Of a DNA stretch of 64,000 nt, positions 5,248 to 64,000 are shown piece after piece. Under the pieces are notes generated by a model. That model was not told the DNA's origin. It was given only the letters and a program-made list of their open reading frames with translations, and searched no databases. Origin of the DNA: Alphaproteobacteria bacterium (lineage in GTDB: Bacteria > Pseudomonadota > Alphaproteobacteria > JABAAW01 > JAHZMA01); NCBI GenBank assembly GCA_965206365.1, contig CBDBJL010000004.1:141144-205143 (forward strand), read 5' to 3'. The stretch's first letter is position 1. Each line of letters opens with the position of its first letter. Position numbers and translations under genes: made by a program.

Positions 5248-5334
5248 AAAACATGATCTTATTCACTTGATAAGCGCTCGGAATGAAGCGTTACTGTAAG
5301 TGTAAAAAGCAATTGAAAACAAGGAGATAACACT

Positions 5335-6581: not shown

Positions 6582-6655
6582 TATTCATTCTCTTTCATTT
6601 TCGTACTCACAGATATTACCAAGATTTACCAATTTCACAAGAAAAGAGGAGAAAA

Positions 6656-15514: not shown

Positions 15515-15704
15515 CGTTTTTGTCCTCGCCTTTTTGTTCTTGCTCACTGATCCAGCGGTCTACCTCGCTTTTGCGAAACCGCCACGCGCTTCCCACTTTG
15601 AAGCCCGGAACCTTGCCCTCAGATGCAAATCGATAGGCCGTCTTCTCAGCAATCTTGAGGTAATCGGCGAGTTCCTTCACGGTCATAATGTCATCATTAG
15701 TCAT
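15504..15704 (-). CDS. AlpA/excisionase-family HTH DNA-binding protein
   Basis: 66 aa with MerR/AlpA-like HTH (TVKELADYLKIAEKTAYRFASEGKVPGFKVGSAWRF); heads the hsdM operon. Confidence 0.65.
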   Translation of the reverse strand: MTNDDIMTVKELADYLKIAEKTAYRFASEGKVPGFKVGSAWRFRKSEVDRWISEQEQKGEDKNDGN

Positions 15705-15802
15705 ATTTTTTTGTCCCTTGAGGTATCATAGGATTGAAAATAGTGGAAATTGAGTGAACAATCAAGTAAGTTATCGAGGAAATCAAATTATAAGACAGGG
15801 TT

Positions 15803-16834
15803 ATGCAGCAATACGGTAACGATAAGATTCTCTACTCACCATCGGACTTGGTCACCTTTTTAGGGTGTCACCATGCGAGCTTCCTTGATGTGAAGGCGCT
15901 GAGTGAGAGCATGGATAAGGCCGAGGCCAGCACCACAGGCCAACTATTGCAGCAAAAAGGCTTGGAGCATGAGGCGGCGTATCTCCAACAACTCAAAGAC
16001 GAAGGTAAGTCCGTCGTTGAAATCCCCAAAGACCGCAATTTGCAAGACCGCGCCCAGCTCACATTAGAGGCCATGCAGTCCGGTGCGGATGTCATTTATC
16101 AGGCCGTATTCTTTGCCCCGCCATGGCGAGGAGATGCCGATTTTCTGATTAAGTGCACTACGCCGTCCGACTTGGGTGATTTCAGCTATGAGGTGCTGGA
16201 TACCAAACTGGCACAAACAGCTGAGCCCAAGCATATCATGCAGCTTTGTGTCTATTCTGAGCTGCTGACTTACCTTCAGGGATTGCGCCCAGCTGATATG
16301 CATTTGTTTCTGGGCGATCATGAAAAACACAGCTTCCGCGTGGCAGACTTTTTCTATTACTACACCCGCGCTAAAGGCCGCTTTGAAACCTATCTGAAAA
16401 GCATGCCAGCAGACTCATATCCTGAGCCTTGCGGTCATTGTAATTTCTGTCCATGGCGCGAGGGCTGCAAAGCGCAGTGGGAACAAGATGATCATTTAAG
16501 CCTTGTGGCCAACATCCAACGCTCACAGATGGATAAGCTGCGGAAAGCTGGCATCTGCACCGTTGCGGAGCTTGCTGCCACAGCGCCTGACACCAAAATT
16601 CCTGATTTGAGCCGTGATGTGTTTTTACGCCTGCGTTCACAAGCCGTCCTGCAACATCACAAAGCCACCACGGGTGAAAATAAATGCGAGATCATTCCGT
16701 TCCCGCCGGGCAAAGGCTTTACCCGTATGCCAGTGCCTGATGATGGTGATCTGTTCTTTGATATGGAGGGCGATCCGCTTTACCCAAATGGTTTGGAATA
16801 TTTGTTTGGGGTCTATTATCGGAACGCGCCGTAA
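15803..16834 (+). pseudogene. N-terminal fragment of a RecB/Cas4-like (TM0106-family) nuclease-helicase gene, interrupted by an IS
   Basis: PD-(D/E)xK RecB-like region with Cys cluster (CGHCNFCPWREGC); reading frame terminated by IS605-family end sequence. Confidence 0.7.
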
Positions 16835-16874
16835 AACCTCGTCCTTCAGGGCGGGGATATAAGGCGCAACCGCG

Positions 16875-17297
16875 CTAGCGCGGTTTTTTGTTGGCTCGCT
16901 GCGTTTCGACATATTTGCGGATAATATCGAGCGGCGCACCACCACATGAAGCGGCAAAATAAGACGGCGACCAAAGGACACCTTTGCGATACCTACCCGT
17001 AATTTCAGGGCGAAAGCTTCGCAAACGGCGACTGGATACACCCTTGAGACTGTTGACCAGCTTAGAGAGGGATATTTTGGGCGGATAATTGATAAGCAGA
17101 TGCACATGGTCGTCTTCCCCGTCACACTCGACGAGTTGCGCCTCAAAGTCGTTGCAGACCTTGGCAAAGATGTGCCGCAAGTCCTGTATAGCCAGTTCTG
17201 ACAGCACATCTCTGCGGTATTTGGTAATAAATACCAAGTGTACGTGTAGCGCAAAAACACAATGTCTGCCTGTGCGATATTCATTTGAGTTGTCCAT
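16875..17297 (-). CDS. tnpA: IS200/IS605 Y1 (HuH) transposase
   Basis: HVHLLI (HuH) and catalytic Tyr region; track ORF extends to 17354 but the family-typical start is MDNSNEYRTGRH. Confidence 0.8.
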   Translation of the reverse strand: MDNSNEYRTGRHCVFALHVHLVFITKYRRDVLSELAIQDLRHIFAKVCNDFEAQLVECDGEDDHVHLLINYPPKISLSKLVNSLKGVSSRRLRSFRPEITGRYRKGVLWSPSYFAASCGGAPLDIIRKYVETQRANKKPR

Positions 17298-17319
17298 AGA
17301 CCAATGGTAGAGTCGAGAT

Positions 17320-18489
17320 ATGCTAAAGGCAACCAAAGTCCGATTGTATCCCACTGTTGACCAGAGGAAGGCGTTTGCCTTTCAATTTGGCGCGATGCGG
17401 TGGGCGTATAATTTTACTTTGGGCTGGCGTAGCTCCGCTTGGAAAGAGCGCGGCGAAAGCATCAGCAAGCGCCAGACCTTGGACAAGCTCGTTGAACTGA
17501 AAGCCACGGAAGAAACAGGCTGGCTAAAGGAAGCCGATAGCCAAGCCTTGCAACAATCGGTGATGCATTTGGATGATGCCTTTAAGCGATTTTTTAGAAA
17601 ACAGGGCCGCTATCCCCGCTTTAAGAGCAAACACGGCAAACAAGCCATGTCCTACCCGCAACGGGTCAAAATTGTAAATGGTGTCAGTCTGTACTTGCCC
17701 AAAGTCGGCACGGTCAAAGCAGTTCTGCACCGTGAGATTGTAGGTAAGATTAAGACCGTCACCATCTCGCGCACTCAAACAGGTAAGTACTATGCGTCAA
17801 TCTTGTGTGATGATGGGCTGGAGGTTCCAGCCCTCTTAAAAACGATTGAAGCGGACGCGGTGACGGGTATTGATTTGGGCATAACGCATTTAGCGATTGC
17901 CAGCACGGGTGAAAAACAAAAGAACCCCCGTATTTTGAAACGTGCGGCGGCCAATTTGCGCCGCAAGCAAAAAACACTGTCACGAAAGAAGAAAGGGTCG
18001 GCAAACCGCAACAAGGCGCGTGTACTTGTTGCCAAGGCTCACGAAAGAACTGCCAACACGCGCAATGACTTTCAACATAAATTGTCAAAACGACTGGTTG
18101 ACGAAAATCAAGCAATCTGCGTGGAGACGTTGAAAGTCAAAAACATGCTCAAGAATAGGAAGCTTGCCAAACATATCGCTGACGCGGCATGGGGCGAATT
18201 GCTCCGAAAGCTGACCTACAAAACAGCTTGGTCAGGTAAGCACCTCGTGCAAATTGACCAGTGGTTTGCATCCAGTAAGACCTGTTCTGATTGCGGCACT
18301 AAGGTTGATGCTATGCCGCTGTCGGTGCGGCAATGGACGTGCCAGACCTGCGACCAAGAGCATGACCGCGATATTAACGCTGCCATCAATATTCGGCAAC
18401 AAGGTATCCTGAAACTAAAGGCGGAAGGGCTATCCGTCTCTGCTTGTGGAGGCTCGCGTAATTCTGGCACACTGCCAGTTGCAGCCTGA
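17320..18489 (+). CDS. tnpB: IS605 OrfB/TnpB RuvC-like RNA-guided endonuclease
   Basis: RuvC-like motifs and C-terminal zinc finger CSDCG...CQTCD; 389 aa. Confidence 0.85.
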   Translation: MLKATKVRLYPTVDQRKAFAFQFGAMRWAYNFTLGWRSSAWKERGESISKRQTLDKLVELKATEETGWLKEADSQALQQSVMHLDDAFKRFFRKQGRYPRFKSKHGKQAMSYPQRVKIVNGVSLYLPKVGTVKAVLHREIVGKIKTVTISRTQTGKYYASILCDDGLEVPALLKTIEADAVTGIDLGITHLAIASTGEKQKNPRILKRAAANLRRKQKTLSRKKKGSANRNKARVLVAKAHERTANTRNDFQHKLSKRLVDENQAICVETLKVKNMLKNRKLAKHIADAAWGELLRKLTYKTAWSGKHLVQIDQWFASSKTCSDCGTKVDAMPLSVRQWTCQTCDQEHDRDINAAINIRQQGILKLKAEGLSVSACGGSRNSGTLPVAA

Positions 18490-20854
18490 GAAACAAGAAG
18501 CCTCGTCCTTTAGGGCGAGGAGTAGTCACTTCAAAGATGGTAAGGAGCTATTCCTTCCGTTCTGGGCGCATGATCATGAAGAAGAGAAAGAAACCTTTAA
18601 GCGCTTCATGGGTTTTTTAACCGATCATCTGGCTGAACACCCGCATGCCCATATCTATCATTACAACCATTATGAAACCACAGCCCTGAAACGCTTGGCC
18701 TGCCGTTATGCTGTGTGTGAGGAGCAGCTGGATAATCTGCTCCGCAATCAAAAATTCATTGATCTGTATCTGGTGGTACGTGAAAGCATCCGCACCTCTG
18801 AGCCCGGCTATTCCATCAAGAACATGGAAACATTCTATATGGATAAGCGAGCCAACGCTGTGGCGACTGCTGCTGATAGCATCATCGTCTATAACGAATG
18901 GCGCGAAACGGGCGCGGATGAATTGCTACAGGAAATTTCTGATTATAACGAGGTGGACTGCGTTTCCACGCATTTGCTGCGCGATTGGCTTCTCACGCTT
19001 AAGCCGGAAGATGCCCCTTGGTTTAAGGGCTTGCCTGAATATGCTGAGGAAGAAGAGCTACAACGCAAGGACTGGGAAATCGAATATGAGGATTACCAAA
19101 CCCGTCTTGGTGTGACCGAGGATAATCCACCGCCGATCAATGAGCGGCTATCCCATCTGCTGGAGTTTCATAACCGTGAAGCCAAACCACAATGGTGGAG
19201 CAGCTTTGAACGGCAGAACAAGTTTGAAGATGAACTAATTGACGATACGGAGTGCCTCGGAGGCTTGCAGCAGGTGGGCAGCCCAGAACCTGAAAAACGC
19301 TCCCTGATTTACAGCTACCGCTTCCCATCGCAGGAATACAAGCTGAAGGTTGGCGCACAGGCCGTTGATATTGCCGTCATGGAAAATGTAGGCACGATTG
19401 TCGAGATTGATGAAGATGCCTGCATCGTCAAAATCAAGCGCGGGGCCAACAAAGAGCCATTGCCGGAAAGCCTCTCCATTGGCCCACCGGGGCCGATTGA
19501 CAGCAAGATCATCCGCTCAGCCATTTACCGCTATGCCGATCATGTGTTGGAAGTGCCGGAAGGTACTCACGCCGCGACCGAATTGCTGGCACGCAATGTT
19601 CCGCGCATACAGGGCAAACAATCAGGTGAAGCGGTCATCACCTCTGATGATCTGCAAAGCGATGCGCTGGAAGCCATTGCTGCGTTAGATAACAGCTATC
19701 TCTTCATCCAAGGCCCGCCGGGCGCGGGTAAAACCTACACCAGCAGTCATATCATTGTGGACTTGATCAAGCGGGGCAAGAAAATCGGTGTAACCTCCAA
19801 CTCGCACAAAGCCATTCATAACTTGCTCGAAAAAGTGGAAAGCGTTGCCGCTGAAAAAGGCGTGAACTTCCATGGCATTAAAAAAGCCAGTGGCGGGAAT
19901 GATGAAACCATCTTCGATGGGCGATTCATCCGCTCAGAAACCAAGACCGACAATATGAGCCTTGGCGCTGATCTGTTTGCGGGTACCGCATGGACATTTG
20001 CCAGCCCACACTTTGATGGTCAGCTTGATTATCTGTTCATTGATGAGGCCGGACAAGTCGCCACGGCCAATGTGGTGGCGATGGCCACGGCAACCAAGAA
20101 CCTTATTCTGGTCGCTGACCAGATGCAATTGGGCCAGCCCATACAAGGCACTCACCCGGGTGAAGCCGGATTATCAGTGCTGGAATTCTTGCTGGGCGAT
20201 CATTCCACCATCCCGGCTGAGCGGGGTATTTTCCTTGGCCAGACACGCCGCATGCGCCCAACTATCTGCCAGTTTATCTCGGATGCCTTTTATGATGGCC
20301 GCCTGACAGCCCATGAGAGCACTGCTGAGCGCAGCTTGAACCTGCAAGGTGTTGATCTGCCCAATGAGGGGATTGTCATGATCCCGGCAGAGCATGAAGG
20401 CTGCTCACAAAAAAGCATCGAGGAAGGCGAAATCATCAAAGCTAAATATGATGCCTTGCTTGGCCAAGAATTTATCGACCGTGATGGAACCACACGCTCG
20501 ATCACCGAAGATGATATTCTGGTGGTCACCCCATACAATGTGCAGGTCAATTACCTACGTTCCATCCTGCCGGACAATGCTAAGGTCGGAACCGTTGATA
20601 AGTTTCAAGGCCAAGAAGCGCCCATTGTGCTGATTTCCATGGTGACATCCAGTGCCGAAGACCTGCCGCGCAATATTGAGTTCCTCTACAGCAAAAACCG
20701 TCTGAATGTTGCCGTTTCACGCGCACAATGTTTGGCCTTAGTGGTCGCCAATCCCAAACTGCTGGAAATCCCATGCGGCACTGTGGAGCAGATGAGATTG
20801 GTCAACACATTCTGCTGGCTGGATGAGTATGCTGAATCTGTTACAAGTAAATAA
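18446..20854 (+). pseudogene. C-terminal fragment of the same nuclease-helicase gene (RNase-H-like exonuclease domain plus SF1 Upf1-like helicase)
   Basis: First approx. 30 codons are IS right-end sequence; the genuine gene resumes near 18530 (DGKELFLPFWAHDHEEE); Walker A GPPGAGKTYT and AAA_11/AAA_12-type helicase motifs. Confidence 0.7.
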
Positions 20855-20859
20855 GAACT

Positions 20860-21350
20860 GAACAACTACCGACTTTCGTCGGTAGGTTCACGTTTTGAAT
20901 GTAATTCAAGATACTGACGAATAACGTCATCCGTCACATTTCCACTCGTCGTTGAAAAATAGCCTCTAGCCCAGAACCGTTGCCCCCAATAGCGTTTGCG
21001 TAATTCGGGGTACTCCCGCTGTATCTTGTATGAGGACCTCCCTTTTACGCGTTGCATCACCTTTGAAATTGGGACGTGCGGCGGGACTGACACAAACATA
21101 TGCACATGGTCGGTAGACAATACGCCTTTTTCAATGTGTACGCCCAATTCATTGCACGTTTGTCGTATCAATGTCCGAATACGCTCACGCATTTCACCAC
21201 GCAGCACCTTGTAACGATATTTTGTTACCCAAACGATATGGTATCTGTGATAATATCTGCTATGACTTCCAGTAGAATAGATCATAAGGTTTCCTTCCAT
21301 TTTAAGACCTTACCGCAACGCTGGGTCTTAAAATGGAAGGAAACCTTATG
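20860..21350 (-). mobile_element. solo IS200-like element
   Basis: tnpA flanked by a 26-bp perfect hairpin (21284-21309 / 21324-21349) on one side and a ctaccgac...gtcggtag hairpin (20868-20887) on the other. Confidence 0.7.
20866..21300 (-). CDS. tnpA: IS200 Y1 transposase
   Basis: HVHMFV HuH motif; typical IS200 TnpA length and sequence (YHIVWVTKYRYKVL). Confidence 0.85.
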   Translation of the reverse strand: MEGNLMIYSTGSHSRYYHRYHIVWVTKYRYKVLRGEMRERIRTLIRQTCNELGVHIEKGVLSTDHVHMFVSVPPHVPISKVMQRVKGRSSYKIQREYPELRKRYWGQRFWARGYFSTTSGNVTDDVIRQYLELHSKREPTDESR

Positions 21351-21400
21351 TAAATAACGCTAAAGCTGACCAGCTAAAAGCTGGTGGTTTTAACCAATTA

Positions 21401-23224
21401 TTGGAAAATAAATTTACGATAGATGAAGCATTCAGGGAGTGCTTTTATGTCGTGCCGGACTATCAACGCGAATATGTCTGGACAGAAAAGCAGATTACGC
21501 AGCTGCTTGAAGATATAAACGAGCAGATGGATAGCAGTTCGTCTGAATATTTTATCGGTACCATTCTCGTGTCCCCGCGAGATGGAGAAAAAGGCCATTA
21601 TGATGTTATAGACGGGCAGCAACGCCTAACTACAACCTTTTTGATTTTATGTGCCTTGAGAGTTCTTTTCAGTGGAATGCCGCAGGGGCAAATGATCAAT
21701 GGATTAACCGCCACCAGCTATACAGATGCACAAGGTGACATTAAAACCAATCTCAAACTTGAACCCAGATACGAAAATGCTGGGGAGGTTATAGAGAAGA
21801 TCGTTCAGGCCAACGGTGATCCGCAAGCCGTTCGTGCCAATATCCAAAGTTCCGGCATTCAGATTTATGGGTCTGTTGAGAATATATTGAACGCCTATGA
21901 TGTTATTTATCGCTTTTTGACCAATAACTATGACGACGAAGCCACGCTGAAAAAATATTGGGGCCATCTGGCCAATAACGTGGTTTTCATTCAAATCTCT
22001 ACGGACGTCAGCAGCGCATTAAAAATATTTGAAACAATTAATGAGCGCGGCGTTGGTCTGAATCCCATGGACCTTCTAAAGAATCTGTTGTTCACTCAGG
22101 TGTCACCAGAACGGTTCTCCCAGCTCAAAGATGAATGGAAAAAGATCACCAGCCCGCTCGAAAAAAACAAAGAAAAGCCACTTCGTTTCTTGCGTTACTT
22201 CCTCATGGCTAATTATGACATCAGGAACGAACGTAACGATGCGATTGTTCGCGAAGATGAGATTTATGATTGGTTCTCTAAGAAGGAAAATGCAGCCCTT
22301 ACAGGCTATCAGGAAAACCCCTTTGAATTTGTTCGGCAGATCACACGTAATGTAAATCGCTACATAGATTTCAGTAATGGGCTTGGCAATGACGGCAAAC
22401 CCAGTTTGGCGATGGACTCTCTTAAAAAACTAACAGGCGGCGCATTCAGTCTGCACTACGTCTTGCTGCTAGCGGCAGCGAATTTGCCAAAGCCACTATT
22501 TGATCAATTTGTGGCACAGCTCGAAAACTTCTTGTTCTTCTACATTTTCACCAAGACCCCAACCAAAGACCTTGAACGCAGCTTCTCGCTTTGGGCTGAT
22601 GAGGTCCGAGATATTGCTCAACTCGAAAATCCTGAAGAGCAGAGACAAAAACTCAATGATTTTGTGTCTGAACGTTTTGCTCAGAACATGGTCAAAAAGA
22701 CGCCAGAGCTTAAAGATGCATTGAAACGTTTGACGTTACACTCCATGCAGCAATACCGCACACGTTATTTGCTGGCACGCTTAACGCAGCATGTGGATAT
22801 GGCATTCAGTGGACAAAAGGTACGAGGAAGTCTTGACCCATATTTTAAATTAGAGATAGAGCACATCCTGCCTAACAACCCTGAAAATGATCTGCGAAAC
22901 ACATGGCAGGAAAAGCATCCAGAGCTGATTTATGATGAACACAAAAACCGCCTTGGCAATCTGACTCTGCTGGAGAAGCCCATCAATATTGTTGCTGGCA
23001 ATGACTTCTATGCAGGTAAAGTTTCTGAATATGCGAAGAGCGGCAATTACCTAACAAGAAGCCTTTCTGCTCTTGCTGAAGTTGGCCAAAACACATCTAT
23101 TTCCCGTATAAACGAAAAACTGTCCGTGTTTAAAAAATGGGATGCGGAGGACGTCGAAAGTCGGCAATTGCTACTGATCGCCTTAGCTCAAGAGATTTGG
23201 AAGACCACAGAAATTACAGCTTAA
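21401..23224 (+). CDS. GmrSD-like type IV restriction enzyme (DUF262 ParB-like N-domain plus DUF1524 His-Me C-domain)
   Basis: DGQQRLTT motif of DUF262; C-terminal EIEHILPNNP...HKNRLGNLTLLEK typical of DUF1524. Confidence 0.8.
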   Translation: MENKFTIDEAFRECFYVVPDYQREYVWTEKQITQLLEDINEQMDSSSSEYFIGTILVSPRDGEKGHYDVIDGQQRLTTTFLILCALRVLFSGMPQGQMINGLTATSYTDAQGDIKTNLKLEPRYENAGEVIEKIVQANGDPQAVRANIQSSGIQIYGSVENILNAYDVIYRFLTNNYDDEATLKKYWGHLANNVVFIQISTDVSSALKIFETINERGVGLNPMDLLKNLLFTQVSPERFSQLKDEWKKITSPLEKNKEKPLRFLRYFLMANYDIRNERNDAIVREDEIYDWFSKKENAALTGYQENPFEFVRQITRNVNRYIDFSNGLGNDGKPSLAMDSLKKLTGGAFSLHYVLLLAAANLPKPLFDQFVAQLENFLFFYIFTKTPTKDLERSFSLWADEVRDIAQLENPEEQRQKLNDFVSERFAQNMVKKTPELKDALKRLTLHSMQQYRTRYLLARLTQHVDMAFSGQKVRGSLDPYFKLEIEHILPNNPENDLRNTWQEKHPELIYDEHKNRLGNLTLLEKPINIVAGNDFYAGKVSEYAKSGNYLTRSLSALAEVGQNTSISRINEKLSVFKKWDAEDVESRQLLLIALAQEIWKTTEITA

Positions 23225-23430
23225 TGCGTTTCCTATGAATCCCAAACAGGGATTCGAACCCACGTTTGGTACGGTACTTTTGCCACGATGATTGAAGTCA
23301 TGCCAAGAGCAGAAATCAAAGCAGCATAAGGTGTTGCAACATAAAACTTGCTTTTCGTTGTTTTCAGGGCAATTATTTGTTGCAACACTATGGTAGGTGT
23401 AGAGGATTCGAACTCAAAGGGGTTCAATAC

Positions 23431-23480
23431 ACCGCCATTAGTTCTAATATATGCTCGCACTGAACCCAATGTGTATTTGA
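23431..23480. repeat. direct repeat copy 1 (approx. 46 bp, tRNA-like fragment context)
   Basis: ccgccattagttctaatatatgctcgcactgaacccaatgtgta is approx. 85% identical to 24187-24233; adjacent to T-arm-like ggattcgaac motifs at 23247-23260 and 23404-23415. Confidence 0.5.
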
Positions 23481-23545
23481 AATTTTTAACGGCTTATTTT
23501 AATTTTTCTTGCACACAATATTAAATTAGAAATAATTGCCCAAAA

Positions 23546-23800
23546 TTGCAAGGTGGCACGCGTGAATTACAAAAGATATTTTTTAAAAATATCCCTATTC
23601 CTAACATCACTGTAGATAATCAAAATATGGTTACCCAACTTGAAGATTTAACCAATCAAGCCTCAATCATCGACCCCGCAGATAAAATCCGCGATGACAC
23701 ACTTGGGCAAATTCAAATCCAAATCGACCAGCTGGTTTATCAGCTTTATGGGCTGAATGATGACGAAATTATCATCATCGAACAAAGCTTAAATATATAA
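23546..23800 (+). pseudogene. remnant resembling the C-terminus of a type IIG/BREX-type N6 methyltransferase or specificity protein
   Basis: C-terminal ...QIDQLVYQLYGLNDDEIIIIEQ matches the conserved LYGLT.EEI.IIE terminus of MmeI/PglX-like enzymes; no upstream catalytic domain present. Confidence 0.3.
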
Positions 23801-24186
23801 CCGTGCTGAATAAATCTATAAGCTTGTTATTAAAACCTTGTATGGCAAAGGAAATATAAAACATTGCTTATATTTCCCTGCATTAAATCTAAGCTATTCG
23901 CTTAAAACAATCCCTATTGGCCTTTTGGGGGATTATTGCCTCTACCACCACCAGAAGGTTTTCCAGTTGTAGAAGGACCATTAGGGGGAGGGGGGGTGCT
24001 CATAGTTTATATCCTTTTAAATGTTAAAATATATCGATAGCAATGCTATCAATGTTAGTATAACGCTAAATTTTATTTTTTTAAAATTATAAAAATCGTG
24101 GGTCCGATTCCCGTGCCAATCAACAAAGCTTGGGGGCTATTTGCTTATAATCGAATATCAACTATCAATGTGATAGTCGCTCTCTC

Positions 24187-24237
24187 CGCCATTAGCTCTT
24201 AATATCTGTTCGCACTGAACCCAGTATGTAGCATGCC
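24187..24237. repeat. direct repeat copy 2
   Basis: See copy 1. Confidence 0.5.
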
Positions 24238-24454
24238 ATACTTAAATTTTACAGATATTTATGAACTGGTCCGACAATTTTCTTGGCGCAATTTGTCTCA
24301 TCTCTCACAAATAATATTCTCGATCCTAGTACCCGACCTTGCAATATCGGAAACCTATCCACTGAAAGAGCAAAATCATACATAGCCTATCAGAAAATCT
24401 TTGCAAAACCGTAATTTTTTGATAAATTACCACTTATGCTTTAAGGCTTTGGAA

Positions 24455-24528
24455 GGTCTCGTAGCTCATCAGGATAGAGCGCCAGATTCCTAATCTGGAG
24501 GTAACAGGTTCGAGTCCTGTCGAGATCG
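24455..24528 (+). tRNA. tRNA-Arg (anticodon CCT)
   Basis: Hand-folded cloverleaf: acceptor ggtctcg/cgagatc, D-arm gctc/gagc, anticodon stem ccaga/tctgg with loop ttCCTaa, T-arm acagg-ttcgagt-cctgt, discriminator G; CCA not encoded. Confidence 0.85.
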
Positions 24529-24584
24529 CCCCTTTTATCTCATTCCCAAGAAAAACCCGCTTTTATGCCTAACGAATATTGCTC

Positions 24585-37896: not shown

Positions 37897-37963
37897 TCCC
37901 CCCCTTGAATAATAATATGCGGGGGGATTTTAAGGGGGGTGGCCATCGGCTGGGCCACCCTTG
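37897..37963. repeat. G6/C6-armed nested palindromic element (family copy outside the prophage)
   Basis: tcccccccttgaataataatatgcgggggga followed by aaggggggtggccatcggctgggccaccctt. Confidence 0.6.
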
Positions 37964-38064
37964 ATTATAAAAAAATAGCGTTTAACGAGCGGGATTTACC
38001 CCTTGATCATAGAGATATTGAGCGATTTCTTTGCAGAAATCAAAATTCTGCTTTTCGGTATTTT

Positions 38065-39825: not shown

Positions 39826-40611
39826 TTAGTAGTTAGAGAGAACGCCGATTTTGATCAGATAATTATCAAAGAAATCAAAATTGGCAAAATTGCCTTTCTT
39901 ATTTTTTGCTTTCACATCAGCGCCGTATTCGATTAAAATATCAATCATAGCAATCGTTTCTTCATAAGTGACATTACTAGTGGGCTCATATTGTTCATCT
40001 TCACTACATCCGCCACCTTCACTACACTCAATATAATGTTTTTCCCTATCGTATATTTGGTGTACGTATTTTCCATGAACAGCCTTAAAAAATGGGGTTT
40101 CACCATCATCATCACGGGCATTTACATCCGCCCCGGCATCTAGCAAAAGCTTGGTGATTTCAGCATTTTCAGTGTTATGCAAAGGCGTTTCTCCGTTAAT
40201 ACGATTACGGGCATTCGCATCTGCCCCTGCACTTAGTAACAGCTTAACAATTTCAGCATCGCGAGCCCAATGCAAAGGCGTATATTCCCAATAACTTTTG
40301 ATATTCACATCTGCCCCCTCTTCAATTAAGAAAATCGCAATCTCACTCCTTCCAGCAAGAAGAGCCCCAGGTAATAAAGTTTCACCATTTTCATCTCTGC
40401 TATTAATATCAATGCCCATTGCCAGTAATTCTTGAATATCAGCAAGGGTAGCGGTTTTCACATCAAAATAATATCTTATAGGATCTTCAATATCTACAAT
40501 TTCTTCCGCTTGCGCTATAACAAAAAAAAAGATTCCACCCATAAGAACACCCGTTATGAGTATGTTTATTAGCAAATTTGCGTGTTTGCTTTTTACCTTT
40601 AATTTTGCCAT
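39826..40611 (-). CDS. ankyrin-repeat protein with N-terminal signal/anchor helix
   Basis: Hydrophobic N-terminal helix followed by at least four ankyrin repeats (TPLHWA..., ETPLHNT..., ETPFFKA...). Confidence 0.8.
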   Translation of the reverse strand: MAKLKVKSKHANLLINILITGVLMGGIFFFVIAQAEEIVDIEDPIRYYFDVKTATLADIQELLAMGIDINSRDENGETLLPGALLAGRSEIAIFLIEEGADVNIKSYWEYTPLHWARDAEIVKLLLSAGADANARNRINGETPLHNTENAEITKLLLDAGADVNARDDDGETPFFKAVHGKYVHQIYDREKHYIECSEGGGCSEDEQYEPTSNVTYEETIAMIDILIEYGADVKAKNKKGNFANFDFFDNYLIKIGVLSNY

Positions 40612-49026: not shown

Positions 49027-51210
49027 TTATCCATGAGTCTCCAACAAATACTCCTGACCAAAAGTCTCTTCCATCATTTTGAAAGATCTATAGTTTGGCG
49101 ATTGCTGATAAATTTTTAACCATTGCGCATCCTCAATATTGATAAGCTCGCCATTTGCGATGGTTTTTTCCAAAGCTTTAGATCGTTGAAACAAAGTGGC
49201 AGGGGTTGGCGCAATTTGCACCACATTAGCGGTTGAATTTTCAGCTGATTTTTGTTCAGATGCTAGTTCTGGCGCAATTGTCCGGTTGCTGATTTTTTGT
49301 GATTTTCTAGGCAAAACATGCAAATTATTCGGCGGAATTTCGCCTTCAATAAAGCCATGCTTAATCGCATGTTCACGCCGTTGGGCATGTTTAAAATTTT
49401 CTAAAATTTTGTAAAAATCGTCATTATCAATCTGTTTTGCGGCATGGGCGATTTCGCGCTTGATCTCTTTGTTATGCGCGCGCTTGGTGGCTTTGGCAAT
49501 ATGTGCCACCGCCATGCGGTTAATACCTTCAAGCTCGGCATTATAAGCGGTGAATAAATATTCGCCATTTTCAACCCCAGATACGTAGATTTGCCCCATA
49601 TCTTCTAAATCCATCGCCACTTGTACAGTGTGTCCCATATAAAGATCTATCTCATGGGCTATAAAATAATGCCGATCCGCGCGAATACCTTTTTTGCCAA
49701 TAACGCGGGTGCCATCACCACCGGCTAATTTTGCAAACAAATAATGCATAATCGTGGGATCTTCCAAAGTTTTAATCTCACCGGTATAATTGGCTAATCT
49801 TTCAGCGGGCGAGCAACCAATCCCTTTGTGGAATCCCTGATAATAATCCTCTGCCACCCAATTGCTGGCGCGCCGCGCCAATTCATCGCGGGTTAATTTT
49901 ACTTTGCTAAACCGATCAATTTTTTCACCATTCGCCCGGGCGTTGCGATAGGCAAAGCTCTGCCTGTTTTCAATTTCAGTTTTTTCGGTAACATTATGCC
50001 CGGCATAACCGGGGTTCAGGCGCATAAAAGTGTCGTTAATAGTGCCGATAGCGCGTTCGATTCCGCCCTTTTCATGGGGTGAATAGGGGTTGGTTAAATC
50101 AATATTAATCCCGGTTTTAAACATAGCGTGCTTAAACCATTTGCTGGTGAAATCGCTACCATTATCGGTGCGCAAGCGTTCGGGCATGCCCCATTCGTTA
50201 ATTGCCCGCCGAATTAACCGTAAGGATCCGTGGGTGCTGGGTGAATCTGTAATTTCTACCAATAATCGCCGTGCATACATATCGGCGATCACATAAATAT
50301 TATATCTGCCATCATCGCAGATCACATCGGCGGGGCTAGCATCGATTTCCCATAATTCATTCGGGCGGGTAAGGTGGGCATACATTTCGCCCAAAGACAG
50401 CGCATATTTGCTGCGGGCTTTATCGGGGTTGCGTAATTTTAGCGCATCTGCGGGGTTTTTACGTGCCCAAGCATTAAACCAGTTGGCAATTTGGCGCGTT
50501 GAGGGAATTTCTTGAAACCCCTTTGCCAATAATAATTGATGGATTGTTTTGCCTGCCAAGCGAGTGCGCGTAAAATGCGCGATAATCTGGGTTTGTAGGT
50601 CGCGATTTGCATCAATAATGCTAGTGCCTTTGCGGTTGCCAAACTTGCCGGCAAGGCTTTTGAAATCGCCAATATTAACGGCTTTGCGCCACCGTAAAAC
50701 ACTGGCACGCGAAATATTAGTAAAGGCAAAATCGCCTGTAATTTTTCCCGAATTAAAATCATCTACAAAAGCGTCAATTCCTGCCATAACACCAATTTTA
50801 TGCGCTAATAAATAAGCGTTAAAAGCGTTGGCAATATCGGCGCGCGCGATACCGCGATCAATAGATTTAGGCAAGGTAGCAATGGTGGGCGAGGGGTTGC
50901 CCATATTGCTACCTCTATCAGCTGGTGGTAAGGCTTTGCCGGAACCACCCTCCTGATTCTGCACTCTTCCCTTTAGATGATAATTGGCGGGGGGGTTAAG
51001 GGGGGTGTCGCTCGGCGCGACATCGCACCCCCCTTTATAAATTGCAGGGATTTTATATTCGGCACCCCCGCCCTGATCGCGGCGAATTTGGCTTTGCCAG
51101 CCATCACGCTTGGCTTTATCGACAATAGCCCGCCGGGTTTTGGGCAGAGTGGCGATTTGCAATTTTGCAATTTCACCGGCAGATAGCCATATTTTGGCAC
51201 TATCTGGCAT
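49027..51210 (-). CDS. MuA-like DDE transposase
   Basis: N-terminal HTH and rve-type DDE core (WEIDASPADV, YVIADMYARRLL); carries an in-frame palindromic element at 50985-51034. Confidence 0.8.
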   Translation of the reverse strand: MPDSAKIWLSAGEIAKLQIATLPKTRRAIVDKAKRDGWQSQIRRDQGGGAEYKIPAIYKGGCDVAPSDTPLNPPANYHLKGRVQNQEGGSGKALPPADRGSNMGNPSPTIATLPKSIDRGIARADIANAFNAYLLAHKIGVMAGIDAFVDDFNSGKITGDFAFTNISRASVLRWRKAVNIGDFKSLAGKFGNRKGTSIIDANRDLQTQIIAHFTRTRLAGKTIHQLLLAKGFQEIPSTRQIANWFNAWARKNPADALKLRNPDKARSKYALSLGEMYAHLTRPNELWEIDASPADVICDDGRYNIYVIADMYARRLLVEITDSPSTHGSLRLIRRAINEWGMPERLRTDNGSDFTSKWFKHAMFKTGINIDLTNPYSPHEKGGIERAIGTINDTFMRLNPGYAGHNVTEKTEIENRQSFAYRNARANGEKIDRFSKVKLTRDELARRASNWVAEDYYQGFHKGIGCSPAERLANYTGEIKTLEDPTIMHYLFAKLAGGDGTRVIGKKGIRADRHYFIAHEIDLYMGHTVQVAMDLEDMGQIYVSGVENGEYLFTAYNAELEGINRMAVAHIAKATKRAHNKEIKREIAHAAKQIDNDDFYKILENFKHAQRREHAIKHGFIEGEIPPNNLHVLPRKSQKISNRTIAPELASEQKSAENSTANVVQIAPTPATLFQRSKALEKTIANGELINIEDAQWLKIYQQSPNYRSFKMMEETFGQEYLLETHG
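50985..51034. repeat. G6/C6 palindromic element inserted in frame in the transposase gene
   Basis: gggggggttaaggggggtgtcgctcggcgcgacatcgcaccccccttt encodes KGGCDVAPSDTPLNPP within MuA. Confidence 0.6.
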
Positions 51211-51697: not shown

Positions 51698-51916
51698 TCA
51701 ACCCCCTGCCAAGATGGTTAGCCACAGGGCTGAATTAAGTAACAAGGTGGCGGTGATGTAAAAAAATATAATAAGGTCAGCTAAATGATCTCGGCTGGTG
51801 GGCATAAAAAAAGCACAAATAATATTTGTTAAAATGCCAGAATGCAGCAGATAATAAAAAATGCAGGCAAACGCACCATTTAACGCAAGGGTGGCGATGA
51901 TGGTAATCGGCATCAT
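51698..51916 (-). CDS. small membrane protein
   Basis: 72 aa with two transmembrane helices. Confidence 0.4.
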   Translation of the reverse strand: MMPITIIATLALNGAFACIFYYLLHSGILTNIICAFFMPTSRDHLADLIIFFYITATLLLNSALWLTILAGG

Positions 51917-52863
51917 CTTTCACCCAACTCGATGCGCAAGCCAGCCCATTGCATAAATTCATTTCGTGATTTTTGGTTGGCGGGACTCCACGCTTTTCGT
52001 AAAGCTGTTAATTGCACTTCTACCGTTTTCTGCTGATGCCCCAATTGGGCGTTTCGTAGCCGATTTGCTTCAAACCCTTCCGGGTCGGCAACACACATCT
52101 CGGCAATGTAGGGTTGCGAAAATTCTTTCGGGTCATCAACCATCAGCCGCACAATCTCGGCTTGTTTGGTATAATCGCCACAATAATTAGCAATTTTGCG
52201 CAACGCGCCATTGCTAAAGGGTGTTTTGGCTTTTTGCAAAGCTGCTTTAGTTTCCGCACCCAAATTATTATACATCGCGATGTCGCGGTTGATTGTAGAG
52301 GGGGAAAGCCCAGTTAATTGTTGAGTGGTTTTGCTAAATTCGGCAAACATATCTAGCGTTTCGGAGCGTTTACCCCCCGTATGTTGATTACCTCTATCTC
52401 CGCCATGTGGCTTTCCGTTAATTTCAACCCAAATTTCTTTGCGCTCAGTTAAAAACGTTGCCCGATCAAGCGCATTTAATTCATGCCGAATTAAATTGGC
52501 GTCGATCTCGGCAAGTTTGGCTTGTTCAGGGGTAAATTCAACAATCTCGGCTTTAATTTCGGTAAAATCCAATAATTTGCAGGCTGCTAGCCGATGCGCC
52601 CCATCAATTAAAATATATTCAGGATTATGATGCGGGGGGTTAAGGGGGGTTATCGCAAGGTGCTCTATACCCTCTTCGAGGGGCGGGGCTCCGTCTTCAG
52701 CACCGAGAAGCGATACCGCACCCCCCTTATTATAATGCACCAAAACAGGCTGTAACACGCCGTTTAGCTTAATATTTTCAGCCAAAATTTCCACATACGG
52801 TTGGCTAGTTTCGCGCAACCGCGGCGGAATTTCAATATTGACAATTTTTATGGAATCAGACAT
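51913..52863 (-). CDS. ParB-like nuclease-domain protein
   Basis: ParB/Srx motif ILIDGAHRLAAC; carries an in-frame palindromic element at 52648-52750. Confidence 0.65.
   Translation of the reverse strand: MSDSIKIVNIEIPPRLRETSQPYVEILAENIKLNGVLQPVLVHYNKGGAVSLLGAEDGAPPLEEGIEHLAITPLNPPHHNPEYILIDGAHRLAACKLLDFTEIKAEIVEFTPEQAKLAEIDANLIRHELNALDRATFLTERKEIWVEINGKPHGGDRGNQHTGGKRSETLDMFAEFSKTTQQLTGLSPSTINRDIAMYNNLGAETKAALQKAKTPFSNGALRKIANYCGDYTKQAEIVRLMVDDPKEFSQPYIAEMCVADPEGFEANRLRNAQLGHQQKTVEVQLTALRKAWSPANQKSRNEFMQWAGLRIELGER
52648..52750. repeat. G6/C6 palindromic element inserted in frame in the ParB-like gene
   Basis: atgatgcggggggttaaggggggttatcgcaagg...gagaagcgataccgcacccccctt; same family as 62606-62715 and 62945-63165. 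Confidence 0.65.
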
Positions 52864-57729: not shown

Positions 57730-58181
57730 TGTATTTATCTGACCATTTTAATGTGTCTGAAGCTGAAAAAAGCCAAACAGCCATTCGCCAGGGCATCGAT
57801 AATTCTGTGCCTAAAGCATTGTATGAAAATTTGAAATTGGTGGCGAATAATATTTTAGAACCCATTCGCGATGAATATGGCGAGCCATTCTCACCACAAA
57901 GCTGGCATCGCTGCCTTGAATTAAATAATTTTATTGGCGGAGCAGAAAATAGTTTCCACCTGTTAGGGCTTGCCGTGGATATTGAGCTGTTAGGCTGGGA
58001 TAATGCTGATTTTGCCAAATGGGCAAGCGAAAATCTGTATTACGATAAAATAATTTTAGAATATTACCAAAAAAACCAACCAAAATCTGGCTGGGTGCAT
58101 ATTCAATTAATGCCCAATCTTGATGATAATCGGATGAAATTTTTAACCTTTAACGGAATAAATTACGAGAGGATAATGTGA
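57729..58181 (+). CDS. peptidase M15-family endolysin
   Basis: SFHLLGLAVDIE metal-binding His/Asp pattern. Confidence 0.65.
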   Translation: MYLSDHFNVSEAEKSQTAIRQGIDNSVPKALYENLKLVANNILEPIRDEYGEPFSPQSWHRCLELNNFIGGAENSFHLLGLAVDIELLGWDNADFAKWASENLYYDKIILEYYQKNQPKSGWVHIQLMPNLDDNRMKFLTFNGINYERIM

Positions 58182-58300
58182 TGATGCATAATTTAATATG
58201 TAAAGGGGGGCATTATAAACAAGGGGGCGCGGAATGCCTAATCGGCATAGCCCCCTTGACCCCCGCTCCTGTCTCTTACAACAAGGCGGCGCACCCCCCT
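58180..58300. repeat. G/C-armed palindromic element (intergenic copy)
   Basis: gtgatgatgcat...aaaggggggcattataaacaagggggcgcggaatgcctaatcggcatagccccctt...ggcggcgcaccccccttat. Confidence 0.5.
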
Positions 58301-58330
58301 TATAAATATAATCATGAAAGGATTATTTAA

Positions 58331-61348: not shown

Positions 61349-62959
61349 TTGATGAAGAAACAAATCCAAAAACCCGAAATGCAAGAAATCGCCACCGCTG
61401 GCGGTTTAGACGATATTAGCCGGTATTATAGCGGTGCCCCGCACGATGCTGATTATCGGCAATCTGCGCTTGCCAACCAAGTTGGCAACGATGAGGCTTG
61501 GCACAAGGCTGCAGAATTTGCCCGTGCCGATGGGCAAGTAGCCGCCTGTATGGGGCAACGGCATCTTGCAGTTACCTCGTTCGCTTGGGAGGTGATACCG
61601 GGCGATGATAGTAAAATAGCGCAAGATGTGGCTGATTTTATTACCCAGCAATTTGAACGGATTCGCTTCAATGATATTTCAGAAAAATTATTATGGGCGC
61701 GTTTTTACGGGGCTTCAGTTGCCGAGGCATTATGGGGCATGGAAGGTAATAAAATAATTTTGCAAGATTTGCGGGTACGGAATCTAAAAAGATTTCATTT
61801 TACCCCCGGTGGCGATGCGCTTTTGCGCACCCATACAAACCCTAATGGGCAAATTGTGCCAGAAAATAAATTTATAATTTTGCGATCAGGCTCGCCTCAT
61901 TCTGATAATCCATTTGGCGAGGGGTTAGCAGATCACCTTTATTGGCCCGTGCGGTTGAAAAAGCTAGGGGTGGCAGAATGGACTTTGTTTTTAGAAAAAT
62001 TTGCCAGCCCCACCATCACCGGCAAATATCCGGCGAATGCCAGCCAAGATGAACGCGATATCTTGTTAAATATTGCCAAATCGGTACGCCGCGATACCGC
62101 TGCGGTGATGCCAGATTCTATGATGCTAGAGATTTTAGAAATCAGCAGGCGTGGCGATGGCGGCTATGTAACGTTTGCAGATTATATGGATAAAACTATC
62201 AGCAAAATTATTATTGGGCAAACAATGACCACCGACGATGGCGCATCGTTAAGCCAAGCCCAAGTGCATAAAGTGGTTGCGGATCGGATTATAAAAGCTG
62301 ATGCCGAATTAATTTGCGAAGGCTTAAATGATACCATTGTTAAATGGTTATGCGGGTGGAATTTTGCAAACGCGCCCCAGCCCACTTTGCGCCGCATTAT
62401 GCCCGAGCCATTTGATGAAAAGGCGCGCGCTGAAACTTTGGCAACGCTTTATAATATCGGCTTTAAGCCCGATTTAAACCGCATTCAAGAAGATTTTGGC
62501 GAAGGCTTTGCAGAGAGAGATTTAAGTGCAGGAGATTTTGGTAATAAAAACCCCCCGCCCACGCAATCTACAAAAAATAATTTTGCTGAAGCTAAAGAAA
62601 ATCCTGACCCCCCCTTAAAAGATAATGAGCGGGGGGATCTTAAGGGGGGGCATCGCAAGGGGTTGAGCTCGTCTTCAATCCCGAGAAGCGATGTCGCACC
62701 CCCCTTAATAAATAAGGATAATATCGATAATATTGTGGATTTGCTAGAAGAGGGGGATCGGCTAGCTTTTGCCGAAATGCTGAATCCCATGCGCAAAGCC
62801 TTAGCAAAAGCCAAAAGCTTTGATGATTTAAACCGGCGTTTAACGCGCCTTGAAGGCAAGGGCAAAATCAACAAATTAGGCAAATTGTTGCAAGCCGCCA
62901 CTGGCTTTGCCCATATTAAAGCCAGTGATGACATAAAGGATGATCCCCTTGAAAAGTAA
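61349..62959 (+). CDS. Mu gp29-like portal protein (DUF935), with an in-frame palindromic insertion near the C-terminus
   Basis: DUF935-like N-terminus; element 62606-62715 translates in frame (DPPLKDNERGDLKGGHRKGLSSSSIPRSDVAPPL). Confidence 0.75.
   Translation: MMKKQIQKPEMQEIATAGGLDDISRYYSGAPHDADYRQSALANQVGNDEAWHKAAEFARADGQVAACMGQRHLAVTSFAWEVIPGDDSKIAQDVADFITQQFERIRFNDISEKLLWARFYGASVAEALWGMEGNKIILQDLRVRNLKRFHFTPGGDALLRTHTNPNGQIVPENKFIILRSGSPHSDNPFGEGLADHLYWPVRLKKLGVAEWTLFLEKFASPTITGKYPANASQDERDILLNIAKSVRRDTAAVMPDSMMLEILEISRRGDGGYVTFADYMDKTISKIIIGQTMTTDDGASLSQAQVHKVVADRIIKADAELICEGLNDTIVKWLCGWNFANAPQPTLRRIMPEPFDEKARAETLATLYNIGFKPDLNRIQEDFGEGFAERDLSAGDFGNKNPPPTQSTKNNFAEAKENPDPPLKDNERGDLKGGHRKGLSSSSIPRSDVAPPLINKDNIDNIVDLLEEGDRLAFAEMLNPMRKALAKAKSFDDLNRRLTRLEGKGKINKLGKLLQAATGFAHIKASDDIKDDPLEK
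62606..62715. repeat. G6/C6 palindromic element inserted in frame in the portal gene
   Basis: ccccccccttaaaagataatgagcggggggatcttaagggggggcatcgcaagg...gagaagcgatgtcgcaccccccttaat. Confidence 0.65.
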
Positions 62960-63195
62960 TGATGCGGGGGGATCACAAGGGGGGATATCGCAAAGCATTG
63001 GGCGTACCGCCTCAATGTTGAGAAGCGATACCGCTCCCCCCTTGAAAAGTAATGATGCGGGGGGATCACAAGGGGGGATATCGCAAAGCATTGGGCGTAC
63101 CGCCTCAATGTTGAGAAGCGATACCGCTCCCCCCTTGAAAAGTAATGATGCGGGGGTCAAGGGGGTTATGCCGATTAGGCATTCCGCACCCCCTT
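62945..63195. repeat. tandem array (2 exact 93-bp units plus partial) of the same palindromic element between portal and F genes
   Basis: Unit gaaaagtaatgatgcggggggatcacaaggggggatatcgcaaagcattgggcgtaccgcctcaatgttgagaagcgataccgctccccccttg at 62951, 63044 and partially at 63137. Confidence 0.8.
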
Positions 63196-63202
63196 GTTAG
63201 AT

Positions 63203-64000
63203 ATGATGCGCACTTTCACCGATGCGGCTAACTTTCTAGCCCAAAAGCATAATATACCCTCGGGCGAATGGAGTGAAATTTGGCAACAACAGCACGATAC
63301 CGCCTTCACCGTTGCCGGGGTGATGAATGATGATCTGCTGGGTGATTTAAAAAATGCGGTAATTAAAGCCCAAGCAGCTGGCAAAACCTTAGAAGATTTC
63401 CGCGGCGAATTTGATGATATTATCGCCAAGCGGGGTTGGTTCACCGATAAATTAAAATCAGCGGGCTATAAAAGATGGCGGACTCGGGTTATCTACGATA
63501 CTAATTTGCGCCAAAGCTATAGCGCAGGCAAGCTTGCCCAAGCCAAAAGGCTAGATCGCAAATATGCGCGCTATGTGGCTATTCAAGATGATCGGGGGCG
63601 CAAAACCCACCAAGCTTGGCACGGCACAATTCTACCCATCGATGATCCGTGGTGGGATACCCACACCCCTATGAATGGTTGGGGGTGCCGCTGCTATGTA
63701 TCGTACCTTACCAAAGCGCAAGCGCAATTCTATTTGGGCGATCAGGATCCTGATGCCCAAATTGCCCCGCCGATCCAAATGCACAGCCAAAGCATCCGCC
63801 TGAAATCTGGCGAAGTAAAAATTGTTACAACCCCCAAAGGCATCTCGCCCGGTTTTAATTACAACCCCGGCGCATCCATTTATAATGCCAAAACTGGTGC
63901 GGTAACCAAGCTTGCCCCAAAAGTTGCCCCTGTAAAATCTACAGCCAATGTTGCGCAAAAAATTAAGCCGAAACCTAGTACAGCCTTACCGGCAGATAAG
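63203..64000 (+). CDS. Mu F-like head morphogenesis protein (3'-truncated by the window end)
   Basis: ORF open from ATG 63203 to the window end; sequence typical of the Phage_Mu_F family (NGWGCRCY); not in the ORF track because it has no stop codon in the window. Confidence 0.7.
   Translation, partial: MMRTFTDAANFLAQKHNIPSGEWSEIWQQQHDTAFTVAGVMNDDLLGDLKNAVIKAQAAGKTLEDFRGEFDDIIAKRGWFTDKLKSAGYKRWRTRVIYDTNLRQSYSAGKLAQAKRLDRKYARYVAIQDDRGRKTHQAWHGTILPIDDPWWDTHTPMNGWGCRCYVSYLTKAQAQFYLGDQDPDAQIAPPIQMHSQSIRLKSGEVKIVTTPKGISPGFNYNPGASIYNAKTGAVTKLAPKVAPVKSTANVAQKIKPKPSTALPADK

Follow-up and report, generated by a model that had tools for sequence, protein, structure and literature searches.

Among the small repeats described from bacteria, two kinds stand closest to the one considered here. 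Mycobacterial interspersed repetitive units (MIRUs) insert at start codons and carry an internal open reading frame (ORF) coupled to the gene, with minimal effect on its expression (review PMC12548453), and Rickettsia palindromic elements (RPEs) are palindromic alphaproteobacterial repeats that insert in-frame into unrelated protein genes and thereby add a peptide to the product (review PMC10969869). [quoted passage not shown] Here we analyzed a tandem array of a palindromic 93-bp unit located between the portal gene and the F-like head morphogenesis gene (hereafter F) of a Mu-like prophage, within a 64,000-nt stretch of an alphaproteobacterial genome (assembly GCA_965206365.1, contig CBDBJL010000004.1, positions 141,144 to 205,143), which is referred to in full as the window. 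We put the probability at about 0.7 that the array is a head-to-tail cluster of a non-autonomous hairpin repeat that landed in the translationally coupled portal–F junction, and that a recent local duplication followed. The family to which it belongs is previously undescribed and is found in an uncultured alphaproteobacterial lineage and its Mu-like prophages; it is most likely selfish DNA resembling RPEs and MIRUs.

Further systems bear on this family by virtue of their structure. In repetitive extragenic palindromes (REPs), the stems covary and specific unpaired bases are kept; these repeats are clustered, and an HUH/Y1 enzyme presumably acts on them in the form of single-strand hairpins. 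More broadly, IS200/IS605 elements, REPs with their associated tyrosine transposases (RAYTs) and integron attC sites are all handled as strand-specific single-strand hairpins, and the single-strand "peel and paste" mechanism of the IS200/IS605 elements is consistent with insertion without target duplication.

The array at the portal–F junction

Tandem Repeats Finder, run on the window, called one strong array only (62945–63156; period 93, 2.3 copies, 100% matches, 0 indels, score 424), and a repeat search of the window returned two full 93-bp units at 100% identity (Table 1). Exactly two occurrences of a 28-nt core of the unit were counted in the window, whereas 100 shuffles gave an expectation of 0. 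The exact tandem duplication of the original prediction is thus borne out, and so are the palindromic nature of the unit and its location. The unit reaches −25.2 kcal/mol when folded as DNA (shuffles: −13.4 ± 2.7; z −4.3); for RNA of the entire 271 nt, the value is −127 kcal/mol (shuffles: −92 ± 5.6; z −6.2). Matches to PF06074 and PF04233 identify the portal and F genes on either side.

Read in the phase of the element, the array opens with a C-run and an AT-rich tail (62945–62965, CCCCTTGAAAAGTAATGATGC), which are followed by a long body (GCGGGGGG ATCACAA GGGGGG ... CCGCT CCCCCC) and the tail again, then by a second long body and tail identical to the first, and finally by a short-type body (63150–63193, GCGGGGG TCAA GGGGG TTATGCCGATTAGGCATTCCGCA CCCCC) with a diverged tail, TTGTTAGATATGATGC. 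Identical 26-nt direct repeats, each made of C-run, tail and GCGGGGG, bracket each long body. The array consists of three head-to-tail members of one dispersed family, namely two identical long copies and one short-type copy. Two units and a partial third had been predicted to fill a short intergenic gap. The two units stand, but the supposed third is a 26-nt module common to the short-type member; likewise, the portal–F location is correct, but the repeat begins inside the portal ORF, and the 243-nt gap is itself the insertion.

The borders of the two genes are accordingly made of repeat sequence. The final four codons and the stop of the portal gene (62945–62959, CCC CTT GAA AAG TAA; PLEK-stop) belong to the first tail, and homology to other portal proteins ends at ...DDIKDD in an alignment with 8 homologues. 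At the other end, the last tail supplies F with its ATGATG start and also holds a TAG stop. Two ENA contigs, L006 and L007, carry the closest portal homologues (45% and 42% identity). In L006, the portal gene (5728–7269) and F (7269–8510) overlap by 1 nt, and in L007 the two genes (10001–11521 and 11527–12744) are 5 nt apart. As the junction is tight in these two nearest related prophages, the 243 nt in the window are the elements themselves. The same holds for the endolysin and holin genes, which overlap by 1 nt in both L006 and L007 and are separated in the window by 149 nt of element pieces.

The two long units differ at 0 of 93 positions, tails included, whereas the next-closest copy in the window, that inside the portal gene, is only 70%–78% identical to them. 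The very recent amplification originally proposed is therefore a reasonable inference. A local duplication is the most economical origin, given that the units and their tails are identical, the other tails in the window differ and 26-nt direct repeats bracket the bodies; it could have arisen through slipped-strand mispairing or unequal recombination between these direct repeats. The third, short-type copy would represent a separate event. Its closest relative is the minus-strand copy at 58212–58272, with 2 mismatches in ~52 nt.

Alternatively, the two long units might be independent adjacent insertions of one master copy that targets the tail of a resident copy. Elements of differing subfamilies do sit adjacent to or nested in each other (the short copy after unit 2; window 58181–58330; L001:2500–2741; L002:2610–2813), suggesting a landing preference beside resident copies. 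However, the identity of the two units extends to every base of their 17-nt tails, from which every other tail in the window differs, and the window contains no third copy of this exact variant, which makes independent insertion quite improbable. An assembler could also have expanded a single long unit present in the source genome, as exact tandem repeats of ~200 nt are prone to mis-assembly from short reads. Against this, the array is just 212 nt long, and a related array (51 nt × 3.5, 90% matches) exists in the prophage L025. In addition, the ENA assembly ERZ26051151, which holds the nearest relatives of the prophage proteins of the window and is not established as the source of its 220-kb contig, has contigs tagged with coverage and topology (ctg168307_27x_l, 1.93 Mb), suggesting long reads. 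We thus consider an assembly artefact very unlikely.

Members, structure and spread of the family

Sequences similar to the unit were found in the window at 37898, 50989, 52634, 58205 and 62608. We then used an alignment of 12 long copies to build a covariance model, R1, which in a window scan with filters off detected 8 copies, all within 37913–63204, the prophage part. Outside the window it found about two dozen more in related loci. At E ≤ 1e-5 there were 18 such matches, consisting of 16 long or short copies in L001, L002, L006, L007 and L025 and 2 in L026 that are missing from the near-duplicate L025. Counting the 8 copies of the window and those 16, and given that the copies of L026 mostly duplicate those of L025, there are at least 24 independent copies. 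They measure 45–110 nt, have inverted-repeat ends and are multi-copy.

Two routes led to the related loci. A pattern for the right end of the element matched only 2 loci among 185,579 species genomes, both in alphaproteobacterial metagenome-assembled genomes and both with several copies nearby. Neither locus is phage DNA; that in L002 lies downstream of aconitase, and that in L001 is part of an island. Homologues of the ParB-like protein of the window led to two related Mu-like prophages, L025 and L026, both rich in copies, including ones inside terminase and MuA genes. L025 lies on the same 1.93-Mb contig as L001, and L026 lies on another contig.

Elsewhere, searches returned little. Rfam holds no matching family: a permissive scan of 62400–63400 gave only chance-level hits (E ≥ 0.9), and the whole window at the gathering score gave only one tRNA. 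BLASTN of 62600–63210 found no match among annotated phage or plasmid records, the exact array core had no match in viral or metagenome collections, and the right-end pattern had 0 matches in viral contigs. A broader left-end pattern gave 3 weak or chance matches in metagenomes; its 17 matches in viral contigs were rejected as G-rich sequences without a hairpin, about a dozen being expected by chance on a rough estimate. Unrelated viral contigs (L012, L021, IMG/VR) contain the motif GCGGGGGG-N-TTAAGGGGGG, also without a hairpin, and a metagenome sequence (L004, 470–516) gives a weak model match (17 bits, E 0.03). The matches in L012, L021 and L004 are probably due to chance or to very distant relatives.

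On the alignment of the 12 long copies we drew a hairpin of three tiers, which G6/C6 runs close. It begins with the outer stem TTAAGGGGGG/CCCCCCTTAA, followed by a 3' bulge, (A/T)CCGC(A), a middle stem such as TATCGC/GCGATA, an internal loop of AA opposite GAGAA, an inner stem with a bulged T and a variable terminal loop. Pairing holds in 96.4% of cells, as compared to 43%–53% (~48%) with the partners slid, and 15 of 24 pairs show changes on both sides; the observed values were reached in 0 of 500 shuffles. Among the bases outside the stems, AA, GAGAA, the bulged T and CGC are kept in 11–12 of the 12 copies, and such invariant unpaired bases point to a specific recognising protein. G–T outnumber A–C mismatches 6 to 1, an indicator of strand or RNA for which these are too few to use. 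The stem is followed by an AT-rich tail with the consensus ~CCCCCC-TTAAATAATGATGC, taking the form TTGAAAAG or TTGTTAGA, which carries stop and ATG codons and has no T/U run; a scan for terminators and promoters at 62900–63210 found no intrinsic terminator, no terminator-like U tract and no promoter. On inspection only, three known motifs were rejected. The AA/GAGAA loop is not a kink-turn, for which its non-bulged strand lacks the GA needed; nor was the element taken to be an integron attC site, there being no GTTRRRY ends, or a site like parS to which the ParB-like protein would bind.

Strong covariation with invariant unpaired bases, the concentration of copies in the prophage part of the window (8 versus 0) and the position at late-operon gene junctions could also be read as signs of a functional cis-acting RNA or DNA site kept by the phage, be it an mRNA stabiliser or processing site, a translation regulator of the late operon or a binding site of the ParB-like protein. 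On the other hand, copies lie in both orientations to transcription and inside the coding sequences of MuA, the ParB-like protein, portal and terminase, and they occur in the non-phage DNA of L001 and L002 as well. In L006 and L007, which are the closest relatives, the portal–F junction is clean, and both the terminator-like U tract and an Rfam family are missing. A functional cis-acting site is therefore an improbable explanation.

The structure recalls that of the REP/BIME/REPIN repeats, which are likewise short imperfect palindromes with covarying stems, kept unpaired bases and a clustered arrangement. Nevertheless, REPs are extragenic, whereas 3 of the 8 copies in the window are intragenic, as are several more in the MuA and terminase genes of L025 and L026. 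REPs have a 5' GTAG, whereas the alignment holds no GTAG and its conserved 5' part is GC-GGGGGG, and REP clusters alternate in orientation, whereas the present array runs head to tail. Moreover, no RAYT gene was seen in the ~165 kb examined, and no Y1 gene lies beside the elements in the loci examined.

Copies within genes and at gene junctions

The three intragenic copies of the window are in-frame (Table 1). That in the portal gene adds ~36 residues (DPPLKDNERGDLKGGHRKGLSSSSIPRSDVAPPLIN) in a variable linker; this segment is missing from 7 of 8 aligned homologues, and in the exception, P0011, this place is taken by an unrelated insertion. The ParB-like protein has ~35 extra residues as compared to 9 homologues, and the insert of MuA (YKGGCDVAPSDTPLNPPANYHLK, ~23 residues) is missing from its closest homologue, P0156. 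Both antisense copies, in the ParB-like and MuA genes, are read in one frame of the element, KGG...PLNPP, which is open in most long copies. At the insert position of MuA in the window, another homologue, P0157, carries a different element-like peptide (YYMGGNRLTAMQSPTTPH, residues ~45–65), and the spot after the GGGxEY motif appears to be a permissive or preferred place of insertion. The retained lengths are divisible by three, with 93 nt in the window, 45 nt in L026 and, within a called gene of L025, 51 nt × 3.5.

With in-frame intragenic insertion into portal, ParB-like and MuA genes, each segment being missing from homologues, the family resembles the RPEs, which we compared by description only. 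It differs from them in several respects. RPEs measure ~150 bp and come from Rickettsia, whereas the present elements measure 45–110 bp, form tandem arrays and reside in a host of free-living type, as judged from its trimethylamine N-oxide (TMAO) demethylase and genes like those of gene transfer agents (GTAs). The host part of the window also encodes methylamine-utilisation genes, and its gene content is not rickettsial. These genes mark the host as an alphaproteobacterium, as do the homologues of the TMAO demethylase, although the best named ones are only 63%–64% identical (Hoeflea, Coralliovum, Rhodobiaceae and Paracoccaceae).

Long ORFs run over the array on both strands, at 62940–63200 (+, 86 aa), 62876–63160 (−, 94 aa) and 62485–63108 (−, 207 aa), and all had been predicted to be artefacts. 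For the two on the minus strand this is most likely right, in that they are created by the stop-free repeat and are not genes; that at 62876–63160 shows the frame FKGGAVSLL...PP, which is the reverse-orientation frame of the element. The plus-strand ORFs, by contrast, may not be pure artefact, because the same frames are translated within genes and because ORFs bridge all five of the junction insertions examined. Should a genuine repeat protein be encoded here, or portal be extended by frameshifting, the 86-aa ORF would be the candidate, as it overlaps the portal end in the +1 frame, has the predicted product MIPLKSNDAGG... and uses the same frame that is translated within the portal copy. However, it is wholly explained by the stop-free repeat, ORFs just as long lie on the opposite strand, no slippery site was seen, though none was looked for, and the relatives have nothing at this place, and we regard such a product as extremely unlikely.

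Instead, the plus strand may be read as two short candidate relay ORFs between portal and F (Table 1). The ATG of the first overlaps the portal stop; that of the second lies 6 nt before the last base of the stop of the first (ATGTTGA), and the second ORF stays open through unit 2 and the short element and ends 2 nt before the F ATG at 63203. Between endolysin and holin, one 49-aa ORF extends from a base shared with the endolysin stop to the base preceding the holin ATG, and equivalent chains exist at L006:2976–3103, L025:3410–3114(−) and L025:496–412(−). Bridging ORFs thus run from the upstream stop to the downstream start in 5 of the 5 element-filled junctions examined. In dinucleotide shuffles of the five gaps, the chance of a bridging chain with any start codon is 0.047, 0.078, 0.515, 0.046 and 0.405, and that with ATG only is 0.0085, 0.029, 0.0315, 0.005 and 0.364.

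These features suggest how copies of a small non-autonomous hairpin repeat could have landed, and been tolerated, in a portal–F junction that is normally overlapping and translationally coupled. The stop and ATG codons of the tail would let portal end (PLEK-stop) and F start (ATGATG) within the element. As the unit is 3 × 31 nt long with one open frame, the short ORFs could carry ribosomes over the structured spacer to F. Gain or loss of whole units keeps the bridging frame; copy number could therefore drift without cost, and the originally proposed proneness of the locus to changes in repeat number is plausible.

In this respect the array is reminiscent of the MIRUs, which form direct tandem repeats (46–101 bp units) between operon genes, as does the present one (93 bp × 2.3) between the co-directional portal and F genes. 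The ORF that couples flanking genes in MIRUs may have its counterpart in the tail with TAATGATG and in the bridging ORFs of all five junction insertions. Unlike MIRUs, the present repeats are strong palindromes whose stems covary and are clamped by G6/C6; they are intragenic in either orientation and reside in prophages. MIRU hosts are mycobacterial and the present host is an alphaproteobacterium, with no evidence of sequence relatedness; the resemblance is therefore one of function, not of membership. A more far-reaching reading would see in the family a new, "coupling-safe" type of mobile element for phage operons and genes, with a strand-specific hairpin (invariant AA/GAGAA loop, bulged T and CGC bulge) moved by an enzyme that is possibly phage- or island-borne, a tail that acts as a portable stop–start cassette and multiple-of-three arrays that are neutral copy-number states. 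We advance it only tentatively and hold it to be rather unlikely.

Table 1. Positions in the window of the array, the dispersed copies, the candidate ORFs and neighbouring features
Feature	Position	Strand	Remarks
93-bp unit 1	62945..63037	+	C-run, AT-rich tail with TAATGATG, GCGGGGGG-ATCACAA-GGGGGG, three-tier hairpin; model match 62958-63052
93-bp unit 2	63038..63130	+	Identical to unit 1; model match 63053-63145
"Partial third unit"	63131..63156	+	Module of 26 nt made up of C-run, tail and GCGGGGG; doubles as the 5' part of the different element that follows
Short-type member	63146..63209	+	GCGGGGG TCAA GGGGG, ATGCC/GGCAT hairpin, TCCGCA CCCCC; model match 63146-63204, E 2e-4
Long-type copy in portal gene	62608..62715	+	In-frame; model match 62623-62715, 98 bits; encodes ~DPPLKDNERGDLKGGHRKGLSSSSIPRSDVAPPLIN
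Long-type copy in ParB-like gene 51913-52863(-)	52626..52737	+	Antisense, in-frame; model match, 77 bits
Short-type copy in MuA transposase gene 49027-51210(-)	50981..51044	+	Antisense, in-frame; model match, 42 bits
Composite of element pieces, endolysin–holin	58181..58330	+	Short-type copy 58212-58272(-), extra C-run/tail modules, plus-strand 3' end
Degenerate short copy near left prophage edge	37898..37971	+	Model match 37913-37971, 32 bits
Candidate relay ORF 1, 20 aa	62959..63021	+	ATG overlaps portal stop (TAATG)
Candidate relay ORF 2, 61 aa	63015..63200	+	Part of the 86-aa ORF 62940-63200
Mu-type portal gene	61349/61352..62959	+	PF06074, E 2.8e-89
Mu F-like head morphogenesis gene	63203..64000, continues past window end	+	PF04233, E 3.2e-18; start ATG 63203
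IS200/IS605 element, the only insertion sequence of the window	16875-18489		tnpA 16875-17354 (-), tnpB 17320-18489 (+); host part

Probable mobility, genomic setting and implications

Mobility of the family is indicated by near-identical cores at unrelated loci, namely at 63146–63204 and 58212–58272(−) in the window and at L025:433–494 and L001:197–257(−) on one contig. L025 and L026 are ~98% identical over long stretches, and their comparison revealed a clean filled/empty site at the 3' end of MuA: 45 nt (15 codons) of a sister subfamily at 13586–13630 in L026 face the empty position 13583/13584 in L025, with no target-site duplication and with one base differing in the flank (CTCAT versus CTAAT). 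This subfamily (GGGGGGAAACCGCGATACCGCTATGCAATCCCCCCGCGCCCC...) also forms a tandem array at 16324–16505 of L025, within a gene called at 301 aa (DUF6378); the array has a period of 51 nt (3 × 17) and 3.5 copies with 90% matches, and L026 is without ~790 nt here. From the asymmetric conserved bulges, the covarying stems and the insertion without target duplication, the family would seem to be handled as a strand-specific single-strand hairpin, and its mobility might proceed through a strand-specific hairpin intermediate, of HUH/Y1 type or similar.

In being small, non-autonomous and multi-copy with inverted-repeat ends, the elements are like MITEs (Correia/NEMIS, ERIC, RUP and others). MITEs, however, are defined by target-site duplications, of which there are none at the one filled/empty site, which belongs to the sister subfamily; and they have terminal inverted repeats matching a parent insertion sequence (IS), whereas the only IS of the window has unrelated ends. 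The palindrome-associated transposable elements (PATEs) derived from IS200/IS605 share the hairpin ends, and insertion without target duplication is compatible with "peel and paste". In contrast to them, the copies show no conserved tetranucleotide on their left flank that could serve as a target. The IS200/IS605 copy of the window was considered as the mobiliser and rejected, since its end hairpins, CCTCGTCCTTCAGGGCGGGG and CCTCGTCCTTTAGGGCGAGG, are unrelated to the family.

Several points weigh against the interpretation of the array as an insertion cluster of a mobile hairpin repeat. No transposase or nuclease able to move the element was found in the window and the related loci, and the filled/empty site belongs to the sister subfamily, not to the 93-bp unit. 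No second strain of the prophage was found in viral and metagenome collections, and copy-number variation is thus unobserved here. Covariation in a palindromic DNA repeat is silent on whether DNA or RNA is the selected structure. The bridging-ORF criterion was set after the data had been seen, and chance could well account for two of the five cases; the bridging ORFs are therefore a consistent pattern, not proof. Finally, all 8 copies of the window lie in its 26-kb prophage part and 0 in its 37.9-kb host part, a distribution that is not explained by a host repeat simply spilling into a prophage. Either an enrichment of the family in mobile DNA or an acquisition of the copies by the phage in a different host might account for it. 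Unlike the host part of the window, the L001 and L002 loci carry the family in non-phage DNA.

The surroundings of the array are those of a Mu/B3-like prophage, as deduced from its gene content. Upstream of portal lie a gp27-like gene, the large terminase, an M15 endolysin and a holin, and further left are MuA, a MuB-like ATPase, the ParB-like gene and an S24 repressor; tblastn matches also indicate a Mu/B3-like setting. Among the early or accessory genes of the prophage, an ankyrin-repeat protein gene (39826–40611) hints at a host-associated lifestyle of the bacterium. In the host part, the end hairpins of the IS200/IS605 element lie at 16836–16858 and 18500–18522, and the element apparently sits between ORFs 15803–16834 and 18446–20854 (RecB-like nuclease and SF1 helicase), which may be halves of one interrupted defence gene. 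This nuclease–helicase gene belongs to a defence-island-like block (4789–24530) that also holds a type I restriction-modification system (hsdR 7799–11002, hsdM 13031–15547) and GmrSD (21401–23224). The block adjoins tRNA-Arg(CCT) (24455–24530), and GTA-type tail genes (TipJ-like, 2186–4456) lie on its far side.

In summary, this analysis describes a repeat family that has heavily colonised transposable (Mu-like) prophages, from which, to our knowledge, such small repeats have rarely been reported. Three prophage proteins, namely portal, the ParB-like protein and MuA, carry element-coded inserts. For annotation, the C-terminus of portal and the start of F should be taken as element-derived, and none of the long ORFs that span the array should be annotated as a gene. 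The family joins traits that are known separately: in-frame insertion like that of RPEs, coupling-preserving arrays like those of MIRUs and structure conservation like that of REPs. If the relay ORFs work, the array would exemplify in nature how a mobile element can leave translational coupling intact, and if the "coupling-safe" reading is true, such elements could occupy junctions where genes overlap, or essential genes themselves when in-frame.

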